Source: Candidatus Onthoplasma sp.
GTDB lineage: Bacteria; Bacillota; Clostridia; Christensenellales; UBA1242
NCBI GenBank assembly: GCA_045578345.1
Contig: JAZNKB010000008.1
Span: forward strand, 31,839-95,838
DNA: 64,000 bases
Reading direction: 5' to 3'
Positions 3,377-56,655 of the stretch are shown one piece after another (the stretch's first letter is position 1; each line of letters begins with the position of its first letter). A program made the position numbers and the translations under genes. Under the pieces are notes generated by a model, which worked only from the letters and a program-made list of their open reading frames with translations, was not told where the DNA came from and did not search any database.

Positions 3377-4641
3377 TAATTAATAACCTTTTTTATCACC
3401 TTAATAGGAAGAATTTTTTCGCTTGTTATTCTAACACACCCAGCAATTGCATTTTTATATCTTTCAAAATCTTCTTCATCTTTATAATAGAATGACACAA
3501 TAACATCACCCTTTTTAACCATTTGACCAATTTTAACACGCAAAATCGCACCAATATTGTCATCATGAGTTTCAGCACATAAACGTCTTATAAGTTCACC
3601 TAAAAGTAAAGAATTAATACTTCCCACATAGCCATCCCTATCAGCAACAAAGTTCACAGATTTATAAGGCAAGAAAAGTTTTGATTCTTTAACAACTTGA
3701 ACATCTCCACCTTGCCACTTAACGATTTGCAATAACCTATTATATGCGGATCCATTATCAAGAGCCATTTTAACCATATCTTCAACATCTTTTCTTTTAA
3801 GTTTCTTATCCGCCGCCATTATCATTAATGTCGCATATTCAACACACACATCTCTTAAAACGCATTGGCGACCTTGCAAAACTTGCAAAGCATCAACAAC
3901 TTCAACAGCATTTCCAATTCCATCACCAATAGTTTGAAGAGTGTTTGTTAAAACAATAATACTTTTAACATTTGATTGATCGAACACATATCTAAGTATG
4001 CTAGCAAGTTCTTTTGCTGATTCATAATCTCTAACAATTGAAGCATGTCCATATTTGATATCAACCAAAACAACCTTGGCTCCACTTGCCAATTTCTTTC
4101 CCGCAATTGATGCTGCAAGCAAATTAATATCATTTTCAATTCCTGCAACTTCTCGTACATCATACAAAAGTTTATCAGCAGGACAAACAATTTCATCATG
4201 AGAAAGAACACAAGCATTCGTTCTATCCAATGCTGTAACAATTGCTTCATTAGTTAATGTTACCTTAAAACTTGGAATTGCACCGAATCTGTCAGCACTT
4301 CCGTTTGTGAATAAAAATGACTTTGCTGTTGATTTGATTATTTTATATCCCAAACTGGCAATAAGCGGAACCAAAACAACACTTGAAGGATCTCCAACGC
4401 CACCTGTTGAATGTTTTTCAAAAACACATTCAGCAAAGTTGAAAACTTTCCCGCTATCACGCAAAGCTCTTGAAAAATATAAAACTTCCTTTTTGGTCAT
4501 TCCAAAGGAATTTAAACTCAAAAAGAATTTGACAGCATCTTTACTTACGCCACCTTGAACAAATTTGTCGACTATTTCATAATATTCCGTTTGTGTCAAC
4601 TCTTGTCCGTTATACTTTTTTTCAATAAAATTACTAAACAT
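3376..4641 (-). CDS. pdp: pyrimidine-nucleoside (thymidine) phosphorylase family protein, divergent
   Basis: KHSTGGVGD phosphate-binding motif and 421 aa with family-wide collinearity. The Gly-rich SGRGLGHTGGT loop is diverged to TAKSFLFTNGS. Its stop overlaps the tsaE start (TAATG). Confidence 0.75.
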   Translation of the reverse strand: MFSNFIEKKYNGQELTQTEYYEIVDKFVQGGVSKDAVKFFLSLNSFGMTKKEVLYFSRALRDSGKVFNFAECVFEKHSTGGVGDPSSVVLVPLIASLGYKIIKSTAKSFLFTNGSADRFGAIPSFKVTLTNEAIVTALDRTNACVLSHDEIVCPADKLLYDVREVAGIENDINLLAASIAGKKLASGAKVVLVDIKYGHASIVRDYESAKELASILRYVFDQSNVKSIIVLTNTLQTIGDGIGNAVEVVDALQVLQGRQCVLRDVCVEYATLMIMAADKKLKRKDVEDMVKMALDNGSAYNRLLQIVKWQGGDVQVVKESKLFLPYKSVNFVADRDGYVGSINSLLLGELIRRLCAETHDDNIGAILRVKIGQMVKKGDVIVSFYYKDEEDFERYKNAIAGCVRITSEKILPIKVIKKVIN

Positions 4642-7714: not shown

Positions 7715-9356
<1,642 letters not shown>

Positions 9357-9907: not shown

Positions 9908-10201
9908 ATGATAGACAAAAAAACAAGAATCAAATTGAGAAGTCTTGCAATGACAATCAAACCAACTCTTTGGGTTGGCAAAGACGGATTTAGTGTTAAT
10001 GTTTTAAAACAAATCGAAGAAGAACTTTTCAACCATGAACTTATCAAAATCGCTGTTCAAGACAATGTTGAACTTCCAAGCGAGTTTGAACTTACAGAAA
10101 TTGCAGTTAAACTTGGTGCTGACGTTGTAACAGTCATTGGAAGAAAAATTGTTCTCTACAAACACAGCGAGAAAAAGAACATTAAACATGTTTTAACTTA
10201 A
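9908..10201 (+). CDS. yhbY: YhbY-type (CRM domain) RNA-binding protein
   Basis: KLRSLAMTIKPTLWVGKDG...HELIKI pattern; 97 aa. Confidence 0.85.
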   Translation: MIDKKTRIKLRSLAMTIKPTLWVGKDGFSVNVLKQIEEELFNHELIKIAVQDNVELPSEFELTEIAVKLGADVVTVIGRKIVLYKHSEKKNIKHVLT

Positions 10202-10293
10202 GTAGATGTGTTTACAAGCAATTTTATTAATTTATTTTTAAAATTGATTATAATCACAGCGAGAAAAAGAACATTAAACACGTTTTAGCTTAA
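10163..10293 (+). repeat. 39-bp direct repeat duplicating the yhbY 3' end (copies 10163-10201 and 10255-10293)
   Basis: 37/39 identical by hand count. The second copy keeps the frame and the TAA stop. Confidence 0.9.
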
Positions 10294-19476: not shown

Positions 19477-21345
19477 TTATTTTTTTCTAAAATGATCGAA
19501 AATTACTTTTGCTGTTGGCTTTGTGATGCCTTTTGTCGATTCTAACTCTTCTAAGGTTGCATTTTTGATGTTTTCTATTGTTCTAAACTTACTTAATAAC
19601 GCTCTTCGTGTTTTGGGGCCTACACCTTGAATTGACTCCAATCCGCCCTTAAACATTCCTTTTGCTCTCAGTTGACGATTGAACGTGATTGCAAAGCGGT
19701 GCGCTTCGTCTCGAGCAAGTTGGATTAATCTAAGAGAATAACTTCCTCTTGCCAAAATATATGGAATGCTTTGATTTGGTTTAAACACTTCTTCTTCACG
19801 TTTTGCCAAACTTATCAAATCATTTGTGAAATGATATTTTTCCATGATTTCAACCGCTGAACTAAGTTGACCTTTTCCACCATCAATAATGATTAAATCT
19901 GGCATACTTGAAAAACTTATATCATCACTCGCCAGTTTTTCCATACGGCGCGTTAAAACTTCTTTCATTGAAGCAAAGTCATCAATGAAATCAACTGTTT
20001 CAATTTTAAATTTGCGGTACATACTTGGTGCTTTCTCACCATTGATTAAAACAACCATGCTTGCAACAGTGTAAGTTCCATGAGTGTGCGAAATGTCGTA
20101 GCATTCAACACGCTTTGGAATATGTTTTAGGTTTAAATCTTTTTGAAGTTGTTTTATTGCACCAATGCTTGCATTTCTTTGTTTTGTGGTTTTGTCCAAA
20201 TTCTTTTCAATGTGCATTCTGGCATTTTTTTCTGCCATTGACAGCAATTGATATTTAACACTGTCAATTTTAGGTTTTGTTATAATAATTCTTTTTTCTC
20301 TTCGTTTGTGGGATTCTTCGACTACGCTATCGCTTCGCTCAGAATGACATGGAATATTGTATTTATTTGATAAAAACACTTCAATTTCATCCGTTTCAAT
20401 TTGTGGCAAAATTATTTCATCCGCCACCATAGGGTGCGTATTATAATATTGCATGATAAATTGCGAATATGCCTCTTTTTCTTCAAGGAAATTTAATATG
20501 TCAAAAGTTTGAATTCCTTGAAGTTTTCCGCCACGAATATTCAACACACACATTGCTGAAAATTCTCCACTAGTGATTAAATTAAACACATCATAGTCAA
20601 CAAGCGAACCAAGGCTTGTTATAACCCTACTTTCCAACTTTTCAATCATTTTAAGTTTTTCTCTGAGTTCCAAAGCAACTTCATAATTTTCATTTTGTGA
20701 AGCAAACATCATTTTTTGCTTAAGAATTTCTGCAACTTCCTTTGTTTCACCCTTTAAAAATCTTATTGCCTTATTAACTTCTTCCATGTATTCATCTTTT
20801 GTAACTTTCAAAGCACAAGGAGCTGAGCACATATGCATTTCATGAAATAAGCACGGTTTGAGTGGCTTTTTGTTTTCACCTAGTGGAAGTTTACATTTTC
20901 TAAGTTTGAATGCATAATCCATAATCGACATAACATCTCTGGCTGTTACTCCTGCCATATATGGACCAAAATATTTATCGTTTTTGTTTAACTTCCTGCT
21001 TATTTCAAAACGCGGGAAATCTTGTTTCATGTTCACTTTGATGTAAGCATACGTTTTGCTGTCTTTAAGCAAGATGTTATAGTAAGGTTTATGCTTTTTG
21101 ATAAGGTTATTTTCAAGCGCAAGTGCTTCAACTTCACTGTTTACAATGAAAAAATCAAAGTCAACAACATTTTTAACCATATTTTGAACTTTAACATGGT
21201 CCTGCTTTCGCAAAAAATATTGACTCACTCTCTTTTTTAAATTCTTAGCCTTACCGACATATATGATGTTTTCATCTTTATCTTTCATGATGTAAACACC
21301 AGGGTCATTCGGCAAACGCTTAATCTTATCTTGAATTATATCCAT
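19477..21345 (-). CDS. uvrC: excinuclease ABC subunit C
   Basis: GIY-YIG N-terminus (GVYIMKD...IYVGKA), a UVR domain, and a C-terminal endonuclease plus (HhH)2 region. 622 aa. Confidence 0.96.
   Translation of the reverse strand: MDIIQDKIKRLPNDPGVYIMKDKDENIIYVGKAKNLKKRVSQYFLRKQDHVKVQNMVKNVVDFDFFIVNSEVEALALENNLIKKHKPYYNILLKDSKTYAYIKVNMKQDFPRFEISRKLNKNDKYFGPYMAGVTARDVMSIMDYAFKLRKCKLPLGENKKPLKPCLFHEMHMCSAPCALKVTKDEYMEEVNKAIRFLKGETKEVAEILKQKMMFASQNENYEVALELREKLKMIEKLESRVITSLGSLVDYDVFNLITSGEFSAMCVLNIRGGKLQGIQTFDILNFLEEKEAYSQFIMQYYNTHPMVADEIILPQIETDEIEVFLSNKYNIPCHSERSDSVVEESHKRREKRIIITKPKIDSVKYQLLSMAEKNARMHIEKNLDKTTKQRNASIGAIKQLQKDLNLKHIPKRVECYDISHTHGTYTVASMVVLINGEKAPSMYRKFKIETVDFIDDFASMKEVLTRRMEKLASDDISFSSMPDLIIIDGGKGQLSSAVEIMEKYHFTNDLISLAKREEEVFKPNQSIPYILARGSYSLRLIQLARDEAHRFAITFNRQLRAKGMFKGGLESIQGVGPKTRRALLSKFRTIENIKNATLEELESTKGITKPTAKVIFDHFRKK
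20311..20348 (-). repeat. copy of a dispersed repeat arm, in frame within uvrC
   Basis: The minus-strand sequence gtcattctgagcgaagcgatagcgtagtcgaagaatcc matches intergenic copies at 34333, 34398, 56514 and 56619. Confidence 0.8.
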
Positions 21346-22128: not shown

Positions 22129-23052
22129 ATGAAAGTTTTAAAGTTTTTAAAAAAGCATTGGTTTAAGATTTTAAGTGTGGTTTTGATTGGAACAATTTCA
22201 ATTTATGTTCTAATGTTTGGAATGAAGCGTGCAAGAAATTATGAAATTTTAAAAGGGGACGAAAAACAGCAAACAATTTACACCATTTGGCATGTTGAAA
22301 CTTTTGAAGGCGGTGGTAAGGCACGAATTGATTATCTTAAAACAATTGCGCGAAATATGGAAAAAGAAGATAATCAAATTTTGTTTATGATTAAAGCGGT
22401 TGATCCTGAAAAGTTAAGTGCAGAATTGGAAGTGAGCAAACCAGACATTATCTCTTTCGGTTTTGGTGTTGGCGAAATTATTTTACCTTATTTAAACACC
22501 CAAGAAAACACTTTTGATGTTAGAGACGAATTGATTGAGAGTGGTAGTTTTAACAGAAAGTTTTATGCCGTGCCATATATTGTTAGCGGCTACGCTATGT
22601 TCAACCACTCTATGCAAGCAAGCGAATTTCATGTTGGCACGAATAACTACACCGCCCCACAAAATATTTACTCATCATTAAATCTTCAACCAAAAGAAAA
22701 TGAAAGCCAATATGAAGCATACAAAGAATTTGTTTATGATAAAAATGTGCAACTACTTGGAACAGGACGAGATCTGTTTAGAATCAACAGCCTTAATAAC
22801 ATTGGACGAACAAATGCAATTATTAATCCGATTAACACTTACACTGATTTAATTCAATATTTAGGTGTCATAAACTCAAACAAAACAACTCAAAATTTTA
22901 TAAGATTGGCGCTTAGTGAAAGTTATCAAAACACACTTGTTCAATATTCTTTATTCAGTTCTAAATATAACAAATTGTATCACGACGGAATATATAATGA
23001 TATGGAAGATGCTATCATGAGTTGCACAGTTCCAAATGTATTCAGTAACTAA
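22129..23052 (+). CDS. membrane-anchored hypothetical protein (307 aa)
   Basis: One N-terminal TM helix. No motif recognised and no SD upstream. Confidence 0.5.
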   Translation: MKVLKFLKKHWFKILSVVLIGTISIYVLMFGMKRARNYEILKGDEKQQTIYTIWHVETFEGGGKARIDYLKTIARNMEKEDNQILFMIKAVDPEKLSAELEVSKPDIISFGFGVGEIILPYLNTQENTFDVRDELIESGSFNRKFYAVPYIVSGYAMFNHSMQASEFHVGTNNYTAPQNIYSSLNLQPKENESQYEAYKEFVYDKNVQLLGTGRDLFRINSLNNIGRTNAIINPINTYTDLIQYLGVINSNKTTQNFIRLALSESYQNTLVQYSLFSSKYNKLYHDGIYNDMEDAIMSCTVPNVFSN

Positions 23053-23053
23053 T

Positions 23054-23225
23054 GTTATGTTGAACTAAGTCGAAACATAACGATTTGCAATCATGATTAG
23101 TTTTGTAATCACGCTATAATTTTTATTTTTTATTCCTATCTATTTAATATGATTAGCGGATTATTCGATTCCACTAAGAACTATAATAAACAATGACTCA
23201 ATATCATGTTGAGATGAGTTAAAAC
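23054..23225. repeat. cluster of degenerate copies of the dispersed repeat family
   Basis: Forward arms at 23054-23081 and 23203-23225, a reverse arm at 23158-23186, and a tgatta/taatca hairpin at 23094-23111. Confidence 0.6.
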
Positions 23226-23253
23226 TTATCCTAAACGAAGTGAAAATAAAAAT

Positions 23254-34236: not shown

Positions 34237-34332
34237 ACATTCTCCTATTTATTGTAGTTTTCTTTGTTTGCACAAATTTATTCATATTTGTATGTTGTTA
34301 AATTAAGTCAATGTAATAACACCTATTAAAAT

Positions 34333-34432
34333 GTCATGTTGAGCGAATGAAATGAGTCGAAACATCCCATAATCAGAAAGTATTGCTTAGCATTATGGGA
34401 TTCTTCGACGCACTACGTTTGCTTAGAATAAC
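34333..34432. repeat. 100-bp inverted-repeat element of the dispersed family
   Basis: Forward arm at 34333-34367 and reverse arm at 34398-34432, flanking a perfect 10-bp stem atcccataat/attatgggat. Confidence 0.8.
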
Positions 34433-34459
34433 AAAACGTTTTATCAAAACGGAACCAAA

Positions 34460-35617
34460 TTAATTTTCTTTGTTATATTTTTCAATTTCTTTCATCATTG
34501 ATTTATATCCAAAAGGTGTTTTAACTTCCACTTTTCCATATGGACATGCAGCAACACATTTATGGCAGAAAATACACTTTTTATAATCAATTTCAGCATA
34601 TAGTTCACCGCGATTATCATATTTCATCATAATTGCGTTTGTTGGACAAATTTTAGAACAGATTTTACAACCTTTACATTGATTTTTATCGATTGTAACT
34701 CTTTGTTGATAGTTGATAAAATAGTTCTTGGAATGTTTAATTTCAGTATGATTATCAAATTCAACTGTTTGGAAATCAACAACGTTAAATCTATCAAGTT
34801 TTTCGGCAACAAGTTTATATGGTCTGTTGAAATCAAACAAATCTCTGTTTTGAGCTTGTTTTAAAATTGTGTTATCATACTTGATTTTTAAAATATCAAA
34901 CATACATGCATCTATTGCGTAAGCACTTTCACTAACAGCCAAAACATTAAGCATTCTTTGAGTTTTGTTTGCTTCAAGAGATACAATTCCATCTAAGATA
35001 TTCAAAACAATTTTGTTTTTAAATGTTTCATACATGTCAATTATGTAATCATTAAAATCTCCTAGTGTGGACAATCTATTTAACACTAGTTCTTTCATTT
35101 GTCCAGGAATTAAACCAAACATATTTGACGTTGCACCTAAATACCCCAATTTATCGTCAAACTTAAGTTTTCCAATGTTTATTATTGCATCAACCTGATT
35201 TACAACATCCAAAACCTTAATTCCTTTTGTTTTTACACCATTCGGAACTTCTAGATTTACTGTTCTTAAGTTGTGGTTAAGTTCACAAGTTGTTAAATTT
35301 GCCATCTCTAACATTCCGGTGTTTAAATAGACTGAACTAAGGTAACTATCACTGAACTTTTTCTCAGGGCTATCCGCAACCAAACATTTAACACCAAACT
35401 GAGATAGATAATCAACCACCGCTCTTACAACAGATGAGTGAGTTGTCTCAGCCAAGTCTTGCGACACAGCATCAGGTAAATGAACCTTAAGAAGAACTTT
35501 CATTTGCGATTTAAACTTGTTTTTCAAACCTAAACGTTGAAAACCATTTTCTATTGCAATTTTCAAATCTTCAATGTTATAATCATTTAAATATTCTAAT
35601 GACACTAAATTACTCAT
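34460..35617 (-). CDS. DUF362-domain protein with a C-terminal 2x[4Fe-4S] ferredoxin domain
   Basis: Two Cys clusters, CKGCKICSKICP and CIFCHKCVAACP. The N-terminal region resembles DUF362. Confidence 0.7.
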   Translation of the reverse strand: MSNLVSLEYLNDYNIEDLKIAIENGFQRLGLKNKFKSQMKVLLKVHLPDAVSQDLAETTHSSVVRAVVDYLSQFGVKCLVADSPEKKFSDSYLSSVYLNTGMLEMANLTTCELNHNLRTVNLEVPNGVKTKGIKVLDVVNQVDAIINIGKLKFDDKLGYLGATSNMFGLIPGQMKELVLNRLSTLGDFNDYIIDMYETFKNKIVLNILDGIVSLEANKTQRMLNVLAVSESAYAIDACMFDILKIKYDNTILKQAQNRDLFDFNRPYKLVAEKLDRFNVVDFQTVEFDNHTEIKHSKNYFINYQQRVTIDKNQCKGCKICSKICPTNAIMMKYDNRGELYAEIDYKKCIFCHKCVAACPYGKVEVKTPFGYKSMMKEIEKYNKEN

Positions 35618-44725: not shown

Positions 44726-44843
44726 TTGATGGCAACGATCTATTTTCTCGGGCCGTCTCCAGCCAAATATCGTCGACGTGTGAGAGCTTAACTGTTGTGT
44801 TCGGAATGGGAACAAGTGGATCCTCTCAGCTATAATCACCATC
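44726..44843 (-). rRNA. rrf: 5S ribosomal RNA
   Basis: Reverse complement contains CCCATTCCGAACACAACAGTTAAGCTC and complementary ends. Boundaries are accurate to about 5 nt. Confidence 0.9.
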
Positions 44844-44875
44844 ATGGTTCATTGAACATCAGCATTTGCTGATTT

Positions 44876-44895
44876 AGAACAATGACAACTGCATA
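44876..44895 (-). repeat. 3' half of the long-range stem bracketing 23S
   Basis: agaacaatgacaactgcata is the exact reverse complement of 48116-48135. Confidence 0.85.
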
Positions 44896-45078
44896 CTCCG
44901 CCAATTAACCTTTTGGCAAATTGCTATTCGCAATTATAGCCCTTATGGTTATTGTCTTCGTTCTATGAAGGAACACCTTAAAAAGTTTTTCCTTCATTAC
45001 TTCTTTTCCAAAGAAAAGGTGAACGATTTAAAACACAAATACTTTGTAATTCTACAAAAGAATCATTTCTCAAAAGGA

Positions 45079-48011
<2,933 letters not shown>

Positions 48012-53175: not shown

Positions 53176-54156
53176 TTACTTCTTTGTTGTCTTTTTTGCT
53201 GGAGCTTTTGCTGCTGGCTTTGTTGCTTTTTTAGCCGGAGTTTTTACAACTGATTTCTTTTCAACAGGTTTTACTTCCTTTTTAGCTTCAACTTTCTTAG
53301 CTGGAGCAGCTTTTGCTTCAACTTTTTTTGCTGGAGCTTTTACTGCTGGCTTTGTTGCTTTTTTGACAGGAGTTTTTACAACTGATTTCTTTTCAACAGG
53401 TTTTACTTCCTTTTTAGCTTCAACTTTCTTAGCTGGAGCAACTTTTACGTCAACTTTTTTGGCTGGAGCTTTTGCTGCTGGCTTTGTTGCTTTTTTAGCC
53501 GGAGTTTTTACTTCTGCTTTCTTTTCAACTTTTGATTCAGCAGGAACAACTCTTGTTGCCTTAACAACTGGTTTTGGAGCCTCAACCTTTTTGGCTGGAG
53601 CTTTCTTTTCTGCGACTGCAGGTTTAACTTCTGCCTTTACTGGTTGAGCTTTTTTCTCTTCAACTTTTTTTGTTGCAACCTTCTTTGCAGGAACTTTCTT
53701 TTGAGCAGGTTTAGTTTGTTCAGTTTTCTTTTCAACTGGTTTTACAACTTCTGCTTTCTTTTCAACTTTCGCTTCAGCTTTTTTAACTGGAGCTTTAACT
53801 GCTGATTTTGTTTCCTTTTTAACTTCAGTTTTCTTTTCAACTGGTTTTGTTAAAGTGCTTTCCTTTGCAACTTTTTTTGCTGCTGTTTTTGTTACAACAG
53901 CTTTGGTTTTTGGTTTTGAAGGCTTGTTTTCAACAACAACTGAATTATTTTCAACTGCTGGAGTTTTTGCTTCTTCTTGCTTTTGTTCAACTTTCTCAAT
54001 AGGTTGTTCATTTTCAACAATAAGAACCTTTTCTTGGAAGTCTTTTTTGATTCGTTTATCCTTATAGTTTAAAATAACAAGAACAACAGATAAAGCAACA
54101 ACAAGTGAGAGCAAAATAACAAGCATCCACCAATAGTTATTTGTGAACCATTCCAT
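53176..54156 (-). CDS. membrane-anchored Lys/Ala/Pro/Val-rich repeat protein (histone-H1-like composition)
   Basis: N-terminal TM helix (WWMLVILLSLVVALSVVLVIL), followed by about 280 aa of AKK/PAKK/VEKK repeats. Confidence 0.7.
   Translation of the reverse strand: MEWFTNNYWWMLVILLSLVVALSVVLVILNYKDKRIKKDFQEKVLIVENEQPIEKVEQKQEEAKTPAVENNSVVVENKPSKPKTKAVVTKTAAKKVAKESTLTKPVEKKTEVKKETKSAVKAPVKKAEAKVEKKAEVVKPVEKKTEQTKPAQKKVPAKKVATKKVEEKKAQPVKAEVKPAVAEKKAPAKKVEAPKPVVKATRVVPAESKVEKKAEVKTPAKKATKPAAKAPAKKVDVKVAPAKKVEAKKEVKPVEKKSVVKTPVKKATKPAVKAPAKKVEAKAAPAKKVEAKKEVKPVEKKSVVKTPAKKATKPAAKAPAKKTTKK
53198..53515 (-). repeat. 132-bp (44-aa) tandem repeat, about 2.4 copies, inside the K/A/P-rich CDS
   Basis: Units start at 53198, 53330 and 53462, with only a few substitutions. 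Confidence 0.9.
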
Positions 54157-55269: not shown

Positions 55270-55559
55270 TTTAAATCCTCCTTTATGCCTTTAGAAAAAC
55301 AAAAATTCCTTTTGCCCAAGACAAAAGGAATACAATTACAAAGTTTAATCGACATTCTTTTTCATCTCCTCGATAAGCTACTCGAAACATGTCCGTTGTT
55401 ATCATTTTGCTAATCGCAAAATTTCTTTATTGGACAATTTCTCGTTTTACCCCATTTCAACATTTGTCTCATGGGGACCCCAGAAATGTCCTTCAGACCT
55501 TTGAGTAATTACGCTTAACAGCACTTATTGTCTTTGGCGCGAAAATTTCTATTAATCTG
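55270..55559 (-). ncRNA. rplJ 5' leader (candidate L10-leader cis-regulatory RNA) with a terminator-type attenuator at 55294-55331
   Basis: About 290-nt untranslated leader downstream of a consensus promoter. Hairpin attccttttg/caaaaggaat plus a U-tract lies about 25 nt before the RBS. Confidence 0.55.
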
Positions 55560-56196: not shown

Positions 56197-56490
56197 ATGA
56201 ACAATGAGTCTTTATTTTTTGCCCAAAAATTAATTAAAAGCGAAAATCATAGGAAAATTTTGGAAACAAAATCCGTTGTTAGTGTTGAAATTAATTTTGC
56301 TTATACTAATCTGATTGAAAATCTACCCTTTGATTTATATGATTCATTTTATGATTATTGCGACTTATTAATTAAACATATTTCAGAAATTAATAAAGAA
56401 AAAAGCAATATGATGTGCCAAGAAGCTTTTAAAAACGGAATTGAATTTGAAAGATATTTAAAATATAAACATGAAAAAATCGAGCAATAA
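56197..56490 (+). CDS. hypothetical protein (97 aa)
   Basis: AGGAG RBS, its own promoter, and a terminator atcgagc/gctcgat at 56470-56503. Confidence 0.5.
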   Translation: MNNESLFFAQKLIKSENHRKILETKSVVSVEINFAYTNLIENLPFDLYDSFYDYCDLLIKHISEINKEKSNMMCQEAFKNGIEFERYLKYKHEKIEQ

Positions 56491-56513
56491 CGCTCGATTT
56501 TTTATTATTTAGG

Positions 56514-56655
56514 GGATCCATTCGACTTCGCTAGCGCTCTGCTCAGAATGACACCATGATTACTATTGTAATCATGGTAATAAAATCATCCACAATTCTT
56601 CACTCTTCATTTCTTTTTGTCATGTTGAGCCTGCCGAAACATCCCATTATCAGAA
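56514..56655. repeat. composite copy of the dispersed repeat family
   Basis: Reverse arm at 56514-56552, an 11-bp hairpin accatgattac/gtaatcatggt at 56553-56578, and a forward arm at 56619-56655. Confidence 0.8.

Follow-up and report, generated by a model that had tools for sequence, protein, structure and literature searches.

A TGTC-tagged hairpin repeat, probably of the Ssn-related family, lies in frame inside uvrC of an AT-rich gut Clostridia genome

The uvrC gene in a 64-kb stretch of clostridial DNA (hereafter the window; G+C content 31.6%) carries within its coding sequence a segment of about 60 nucleotides that is built around a short dispersed hairpin repeat. Our analyses demonstrate that this segment is a copy of a repeat present elsewhere in the window, that it was inserted into uvrC with the reading frame intact, that it falls in a predicted loop of the protein and that the hairpin family to which it belongs is linked to genes for small GIY-YIG nucleases of the Ssn group. 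We consider it probable, although short of certain, that the insert is a unit of the CGTC/TGTC-tagged REP and Ssn-related hairpin family and that it reached uvrC by Ssn-dependent spread. The features of uvrC on which the argument turns are the following.

19477–21345, minus strand: uvrC, a 622-residue open reading frame (ORF) identified by its Pfam domains and 119 orthologs.
20299–20358, minus strand: segment of about 60 nt found in this uvrC only, encoding IPCHSERSDSVVEESHKRRE (residues 331–350), delimited by DNA and protein alignments.
20310–20349, minus strand: intact TGTC-tagged unit inside uvrC, TGTC-ATTCT-GA-GC..(15-nt loop insert)..TC-GA-AGAAT-CCC, with 0 mismatches to the family pattern.

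A protein search with UvrC returned the query itself and its 119 closest orthologs, which show 76–91% identity and are mostly 600–605 residues long. In the alignment of these 120 proteins the 20 residues IPCHSERSDSVVEESHKRRE stand opposite a gap in 119 of 119 orthologs, which bears out the initial annotation of this DNA, where the segment was described as missing from other UvrC sequences. Some orthologs are longer, and their extra length consists of N- or C-terminal extensions only. The DNA alignment gives the same picture, as the orthologous uvrC genes of two related loci (L001 and L002) match the window gene at 84–85% identity on both flanks of a 60-column gap, with the ends of the insert blurred by about 10 nt. 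The 38-nt string first noticed at 20311–20348 is present exactly as quoted and is translated stop-free in uvrC as CHSERSDSVVEESH. On the sense strand the unit at 20310–20349 reads TGTCATTCTGAGCGAAGCGATAGCGTAGTCGAAGAATCCC, the tagged strand being the sense strand. The insertion of a dispersed repeat in frame, as first suggested, is likewise what we find: the insert is a multiple of three in length, is free of stop codons, keeps the frame of uvrC and is specific to this lineage. The alignments indicate that the segment entered uvrC after the lineage had diverged from relatives that share 91% UvrC identity with it. Because it matches the family pattern without mismatch and is lineage-specific, the uvrC unit is comparatively young.

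The Pfam domains of the protein are GIY-YIG (residues 16–90), UvrC_RNaseH (250–380), the RNase H endonuclease (401–553) and HhH (569–620). The insert falls within the non-catalytic UvrC_RNaseH domain (PF22920, 250–380), upstream of the endonuclease domain at 401–553. The initial annotation had placed it in a linker ahead of the endonuclease half; the position upstream of the endonuclease holds, and the inter-domain linker gives way to a loop within UvrC_RNaseH. In an AlphaFold2 model of moderate quality, built with 42 orthologs in the alignment (mean predicted local distance difference test score, pLDDT, of 69), residues 331–350 are coil with pLDDT below 50, exactly the extent of the insert, and are flanked by a helix (319–329) and a strand (354–356), both with pLDDT of 76–87. 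The model, which had been proposed as a check for a surface loop, fits an insert that forms a surface loop inside the RNase H-like domain. As all catalytic domains of UvrC are intact, the protein most likely tolerates the insert as a passenger. Stop-free frames number four of six for the 28-nt form of the unit and three of six for the long-loop unit of uvrC, which uses one of these three. Because of these stop-free frames and the one-in-three chance of a frame-keeping length, roughly one in every five or six loop insertions would spare the gene.

Further units of the repeat lie between genes of the window.

34332–34368, plus strand: left unit of an intergenic inverted pair, GT/AC stem variant.
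34397–34433, minus strand: right unit of the same pair, TC/GA stem variant, with 2 mismatches to the pattern.
56512–56553, minus strand: intergenic unit TGTCATTCTGAGCAGAGCGCTAGCGAAGTCGAATGGATCCCC, with 33/39 identity to the uvrC copy, 22 nt past the stop of the ORF at 56197–56490.
56618–56645, plus strand: short-loop 28-nt unit TGTCATGTTGAGCCTGCCGAAACATCCC, followed by ATTATCAGAA, which is like the start of the spacer in the 34332–34433 element.
23053–23231: three decayed units, at 23053–23081 (plus strand), about 23158–23192 (minus strand) and about 23203–23231 (plus strand).

Global alignment of the 38-nt uvrC string with the copy at 56514–56552 yields 33 matches over 39 columns, the very figure that had been counted by hand. 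The other matches that had been listed are recovered as well, with 30 identities to 34398–34432 and, for the reverse complement, 28 identities to 34333–34367 and 22 to 56619–56645. The consensus suggested for the family, GTCATNNTGAGCGAA-N-GTCGAANNATCC, has 2 matches in the window versus 0 in 100 dinucleotide-preserving shuffles, and the 17-mer GTCATTCTGAGCGAAGC, allowing up to 3 mismatches, has 2 matches versus a shuffle mean of 0.06. With a fuzzy pattern of looser terms, the matches do not reach significance by themselves (6 observed versus a shuffle mean of 2.4 and a maximum of 6), and the significance rests on the strict patterns together with the family evidence. The decayed unit at 23053–23081 was picked up by such a looser search. 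Searches of Rfam over the whole window gave no match for the repeats at gathering thresholds, and around 34250–34500 they gave only chance microRNA matches at E up to 10.

Alignment of five window units reveals a conserved head, TGTCAT..TGAGC, and a conserved tail, CGAA..ATCCC. The tag is TGTC at 20310–20349, 34332–34368, 56512–56553 and 56618–56645, and TGTT in two of the decayed units. AT..AT frames the stem in every intact window unit, while the tail after the stem reads ATCCCA in the uvrC copy, in both units at 34.3 kb and at 56618–56645. The units occur singly, head-to-head and tail-to-tail, and the inverted pair at 34332–34433 is located 27 nt past the stop of the ORF at 34460–35617. Between the diverging units at 56512–56553 and 56618–56645 there is also a perfect 10-bp hairpin (56556–56579; CCATGATTAC TATT GTAATCATGG), which may act as a terminator or belong to the element.

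The decayed cluster fills the whole gap from the ORF at 22129–23052 to the next gene, with 23053 the first base past the stop. An orthologous decayed pair is found in L002 (about 8800–9010) and includes TGTAATGTTGAGCCTGCCGAAACATAAC, which is close to the window unit at 56618–56645. In L001 (about 640–660) the same two genes abut, with no spacer and no units. The site at 23053–23231 is a filled/empty site polymorphism, one that could define the ends of the element. Because the decayed pair is common to the window and L002 and absent in L001, the repeat family has resided in the lineage for a time sufficient for decay at some sites.

To examine the shape of the unit we scanned species-representative genomes with the pattern TGTCATNNTGAGC-N(3-25)-CGAANNATCCC, in which the AT start of the stem is fixed and the NN positions are left free. 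The scan returned at least 120 stretches (L003–L122), and these 120 loci provided 145 unit instances, 94 of them 28 nt long. The two NN/N'N' positions are both Watson-Crick in 139 of the 145 instances, against 56 on average and at most 71 with shuffled partners, and seven complementary combinations occur (TC/GA 75, CC/GG 46, GT/AC 6, GC/GC 5, CT/AG 4, TT/AA 2 and AT/AT 1). As deduced from these sequences, the unit reads TGTC / A-T-N-N-T / G-A / G-C / G-N-A / G-C / G-A / A-N'-N'-A-T / CCC. It consists of an unpaired TGTC tag, a 5-bp AT-started stem, a GA/GA step, a GC-GNA-GC tip and an unpaired CCC(A) tail, and the minimum-energy DNA fold of the unit reproduces the deduced shape exactly. What had been taken for one arm of a larger palindrome is the basic hairpin unit itself and not half of it. 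The uvrC unit has a 15-nt extra loop segment in the tip, the loop inserts of the window units measure 11–15 nt, and longer variants with an extra palindrome in the loop occur in L029, L016, L013 and L074. Tandem sheared pairs can arise where GA faces GA, and d(GCGAAGC) is well known for forming a mini-hairpin of very high stability; on the complementary strand of the unit, TC would face TC. From known G.A chemistry we infer that the unit contains a tandem G.A step and that its two strands are asymmetric (GA/GA versus TC/TC). The inverted pair at 34332–34433 forms one long hairpin, with a z-score of −5.7 as RNA and −4.0 as DNA.

The hosts of the at least 120 stretches include Acidobacteriota, Chloroflexota, Patescibacteria, Bacteroidota, Pseudomonadota, Bacillota, Actinomycetota, Verrucomicrobiota, Elusimicrobiota, Myxococcota and Armatimonadota, and the G.A-type unit has almost the same sequence in at least 10 phyla, Patescibacteria and Bacillota among them. 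A Clostridiales metagenome-assembled genome (MAG; L064) has a copy differing from the uvrC unit by a single mismatch, and a copy at 4045–4073 of this locus has CGTC as its tag. Units in frame are also found inside other proteins, namely UvrA of a gammaproteobacterial MAG (L058, 5992–6019, near residue 175), LeuRS (L086, 3038–3086, residues 238–254) and an RlmI-like methyltransferase (L051, 6751–6778). Contigs classed as viral carry units too, in 51 stretches from IMG/VR (L204–L255), and L255 encodes an Ssn homolog.

Repeats with many of these traits have been described. In 2013, Di Nocera, De Gregorio and Rocco (BMC Genomics 14:522) distinguished two superfamilies of REPs by their tags, GTAG and CGTC (PMC3733652). 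The tag of the CGTC REPs is TGTC in many members, with CCTC allowed, the stem starts with AT and the tail is CCA-like; solo units occur, inverted dimers are common, and the repeats are sited just past the 3' ends of ORFs (PMC3733652). The superfamily includes the Neisseria dRS3 repeat and, from R. conorii, RPE-4 (CGTC-4) and RPE-6 (CGTC-1) (PMC3733652). Intragenic CGTC REPs were noted in replication genes, excision-repair genes ('excinuclease ABC complex proteins') and tRNA synthetase genes, with cases in R. conorii uvrB, Thioalkalivibrio uvrA and O. terrae uvrA (PMC3733652). According to the authors, no dedicated transposase was known for CGTC REPs at that time, and they found no RAYT with CGTC units at its flanks (PMC3733652).

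The window units share with the CGTC REPs the tag, the A-T/T-A start of the stem, the CCA-like tail, the inverted pairs and the position past ORFs, and both also lie in frame inside repair genes. The copies in UvrA and LeuRS parallel the published bias of CGTC REPs toward repair genes and tRNA synthetases, in a set of three cases. The stems differ. CGTC-1 to CGTC-4 have 8–9 paired positions and loops of 4–5 nt, which the units here do not match: their stem is made of 5 Watson-Crick pairs followed by a GA/GA step and 2 GC pairs, and their loop is either 3 nt long or enlarged by inserts of 11–15 nt; counting the two G.A steps, they have nine stacked positions. The 2013 survey dropped repeats with more than one stem mismatch (PMC3733652), a filter that would remove the GA/GA form. 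Its list of CGTC hosts covers 5 phyla and lacks Bacillota and Patescibacteria, both of which host units here.

The likeness to Rickettsia palindromic elements (RPEs) that had been pointed out for the uvrC insert is upheld at the level of tag, stem and tail, which are those of the superfamily that includes RPE-4 and RPE-6 (PMC3733652). As is the case for RPE-4 and RPE-6, the units are palindromic, occur in frame in conserved genes and are tolerated as extra peptide; the differences lie in the phylum of the host and in the sequence of the stem, and the link to these two elements is the one drawn in the 2013 survey (PMC3733652). A search of the NCBIfam models gave no match to the unit-encoded peptides. 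With RPE-1, which is longer and falls into another sequence class, the likeness is looser.

A partner gene for the hairpin emerged from a Patescibacteria locus (L053), where a gene for a 93-residue GIY-YIG protein (408–689; P0121) is bracketed by inverted units. One arm, TGTCAT...GGATCCC, is placed 17 nt before the ATG and the other, GGGATCC...GGATGACA, 18 nt after the stop. P0121 has PF01541 as its sole Pfam domain and is 41% identical (E 2e-27) to a 94-residue Neisseria gonorrhoeae ORF that is unannotated in its record and is flanked by CGTCATTCCCGCGCAGGCGGGAATC repeats, the canonical NTS. Because of its length and its NTS flanks, we take this ORF to be ssnA. Chenal et al. (2025, Nat Commun 16:2388) described ssnA as encoding a 94-residue single-domain GIY-YIG protein (cd10448) and found NTS (CGTCATTCCCGCGMAVGCGGGAATCYRG) or related SRM hairpins flanking 71% of ssnA homologs (PMC11893778). 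In single-stranded DNA (ssDNA), SsnA attaches to the hairpin on one of the two strands, the tagged one, and cuts a few bases 5' of it; the protein is inactive on duplex DNA and on RNA (PMC11893778). The authors likened the NTS-ssnA-NTS arrangement to an insertion sequence; NTS are rarely intragenic (2% in N. meningitidis), and a role of Ssn in natural transformation is known for Neisseria only (PMC11893778). Our units and the NTS/SRM repeats have in common a GTCAT head, a hairpin, an ATC-C tail, inverted flanks around a GIY-YIG gene of about 94 codons and an occurrence in many phyla. An assignment of the partner gene to the YhbQ/UPF0213 type proved wrong in detail, the family being the cd10448 Ssn group. 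Searches of full-text literature for the nucleotide strings of the unit, for the encoded peptides and for GIY-YIG combined with palindromic repeats returned primers or unrelated papers only.

Since only 2 of the 120 randomly matched genome loci (L053 and L054) carry an ssn gene beside a unit, the association was tested from the side of the gene. P0121 has 1607 homologs at E up to 1e-5, many of them on contigs of 0.5–3 kb, as expected if the repeats break assemblies. We examined 80 metagenomic loci (L123–L202) that encode relatives of P0121 and recorded units no more than 150 nt from the gene. A plus-strand unit is present upstream of 30 of 72 genes and a minus-strand unit downstream of 26 of 76, with both in 18; elsewhere in these 80 loci, units occur at a background rate of 0.028 for each orientation and 150 nt. 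These counts link the hairpin to ssn genes at the level of the family. The downstream arm of L130 is of the long-loop form, as are the units in uvrC and at 56.5 kb. Ssn entries in the database (P0152–P0240) are extended by peptides that the hairpins encode, DPSLRSG, DSSLRSE or HCHSERSKES at the C terminus and VILSVAKDL at the N terminus. At L054 (1600–4200; Pedobacter frigidisoli) there is a tandem hairpin-ssn-hairpin array that packs over 8 hairpins into 2.3 kb, in which a stop splits one ssn copy into pieces of 63 and about 50 residues.

In the reading that we favor, the autonomous form of the element would be an Ssn gene of about 94 codons bracketed by inverted hairpins. The solo unit of uvrC and the gene-less pairs at 34332–34433 and 23053–23231 would be non-autonomous derivatives of this hairpin-ssn-hairpin form, spread in trans by an Ssn-dependent process that acts on ssDNA, for example nicking followed by copy-repair or by template switching. 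Selection would then retain only those insertions in genes that matter that are in frame, stop-free and sited in a loop.

Several results weigh against this reading. No ssn gene was found in the 64-kb window by a GIY-YIG regular expression or a profile search, and a profile search found no ssn homolog in the related loci L001, L002 and L064. GIY-YIG nucleases are hydrolytic and we know of no transposition chemistry for Ssn; a hydrolytic GIY-YIG nuclease alone cannot explain integration. In the alignment with L001 and L002, neither a target-site duplication nor a sharp boundary is definable at the uvrC site. Moreover, the fold of a solo unit is weak and not beyond that of shuffles (−1.9 kcal/mol and z −0.6 as DNA), that of the uvrC unit gives z-scores of +0.2 as DNA and −0.16 as RNA, and nearest-neighbor folding of solo units does not separate the two strands. 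The folding tool gives no reward for sheared G.A pairs or for the d(GCGAAGC) features. Because solo-unit folding is weak, the hairpin rests on covariation and on prior knowledge of G.A pairs and d(GCGAAGC). In addition, the published SRM string, HGTCWYN(0-2)YYVSBRHN(0-5)WNVSBRGN(0-2)RNCYNB, has 0 matches in the window, every unit included, and does not match the 28-nt consensus. This string finds 6 NTS in a Neisseria control, but among the loci examined here it has matches in no more than 4 of 80 with ssn genes and 6 of 120 from the genome scan, and the published SRM counts probably underestimate the family. Finally, the low pLDDT of the insert is partly expected for a segment present in one aligned sequence only, and the UvrC insert is known from one assembly and one contig.

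Other explanations of the insert have to be set against the same data. The uvrC copy might be a half-element, left by a deletion, of a classical MITE (miniature transposable element with inverted repeats) derived by deletion from an insertion sequence with a DDE transposase. The pair at 34332–34433 does resemble terminal inverted repeats around a short spacer, but the units also stand singly, head-to-head and tail-to-tail, and each is itself a hairpin with internal covariation. No target-site duplication is definable in uvrC, the only gene seen between inverted units encodes the 93-residue GIY-YIG nuclease and not a transposase, and there is no transposase among the most frequent 25 of the 92 Pfam families of the window ORFs. 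A MITE origin is therefore improbable.

We consider very unlikely that the units are GTAG REPs or REPINs mobilized by a RAYT, an IS200/IS605-like tyrosine transposase. Both kinds of repeat are short tagged hairpins of the same size class that occur both singly and as inverted dimers, a short way past the ends of ORFs, and have a dedicated flanking gene for a protein that acts on ssDNA hairpins, and repeats of this sort have been reported in repair genes (PMC3733652). The tag, however, is TGTC or CGTC in place of GTAG, and the partner is a GIY-YIG nuclease, whereas that of the GTAG repeats is the HUH tyrosine transposase RAYT, for which no case flanked by CGTC units is reported (PMC3733652).

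An assembly artefact, in which a repeat-induced chimeric join or a collapsed read of the MAG placed the unit in uvrC, would agree with the facts that a single assembly carries the protein, that an exact-sequence look-up in a contig index gave no match and that repeats of this family break assemblies, with many ssn contigs only 0.5–3 kb long. Against this, the uvrC frame continues through the insert, nucleotide identity to the orthologs is about 84–85% on both sides, and a clean, stop-free multiple of three would rarely come from a random mis-join; we give an artefact little credence.

There is equally little to commend a role of the segment at the RNA level, as a stabilizer, attenuator or ribozyme-like element in uvrC mRNA. 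For REPs located past the ends of ORFs, an action as RNA elements has been suggested (PMC3733652), and the core CUGAGC...CGAAG of the unit is superficially like that of the hammerhead. Yet Rfam gave no match at the gathering threshold and no relevant match at E up to 10, the RNA fold of the solo unit has a z-score of only −0.16, and Ssn acts on ssDNA and not on RNA (PMC11893778). The hammerhead comparison itself was rejected, as the units lack G8 and A9, and those of the GT type do not conserve C3. An origin in tRNA T-arms, tmRNA or rRNA was also considered and is unsupported, the 23S and 5S genes of the window not matching the pattern.

That the segment is an ancestral or adaptive loop of UvrC, with a merely secondary likeness to the intergenic repeats, is scarcely credible, for although the unit is intact and the reading frame preserved, the segment is missing from 119 of 119 closest orthologs, is identical at 33 of 39 positions to an intergenic copy and lies one mismatch from the copy in L064, and is GC-rich in a window of 31.6% G+C.

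The insertion of a hairpin unit related to CGTC REPs and Ssn repeats thus remains the reading we prefer. The repeat family and its insertion in frame into excision-repair genes have already been described, and what is new, modest as it is, concerns the host, the gene that received the unit and the subclass of hairpin. A broader proposal is that TGTCAT-NN-TGAGC-GNAG-CGAA-N'N'-ATCCC defines a distinct Ssn-hairpin subclass that escapes both published searches, owing to the mismatch filter of 2013 and the SRM string of 2025, is part of a mobile unit of about 400 bp that passes between phyla and has a real bias toward nucleotide excision repair genes; we regard this as doubtful. If true, the hairpin-ssn-hairpin unit of about 400 bp would still be moving between phyla and still seeding solo copies, and the recurrence of insertions in uvrC, in uvrA (L058) and in the published uvrA and uvrB genes would reflect a bias of target or of tolerance and not chance.

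With regard to its surroundings, uvrC is accompanied by ctsR, a UVR-domain gene, a mcsB-like kinase gene and a clp ATPase gene, and the same neighbors are found in relatives. Relatives of the window genome are annotated as Clostridia, one of them as Candidatus Onthoplasma (Christensenellales). Several further features of the window are listed here.

53179–54156, minus strand: 326-residue protein with an N-terminal membrane anchor and a body rich in Lys, Ala, Pro, Val and Glu that is made of 44-residue (132-nt) tandem repeats.
10157–10201 and 10249–10293: intergenic direct repeat of 45 nt, with 91% identity and the copies 92 nt apart; no Rfam match.
44727–48011 and 55291–55555, both minus strand: 23S and 5S rRNA genes and the ribosomal protein L10 leader; the ORFs listed within the rRNA genes of the window are spurious.

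These findings open no new kind of biology, and their consequences are in part practical. In gene annotation, the peptides that the hairpins encode (HSERSEES, VILSEAKNL and DPSLRSG*) pollute protein databases, and in counts of the repeats the published SRM string is too narrow for the G.A class. For Ssn proteins, whose use as sequence-specific cutters of ssDNA is being developed, a very common hairpin class with another stem architecture offers a ready source of new enzyme/site pairs. The insert in uvrC extends a known system of repeat and nuclease to AT-rich gut Clostridia, and it demonstrates that a unit of this system can be written into an excision-repair protein and persist there as a loop of 20 residues.

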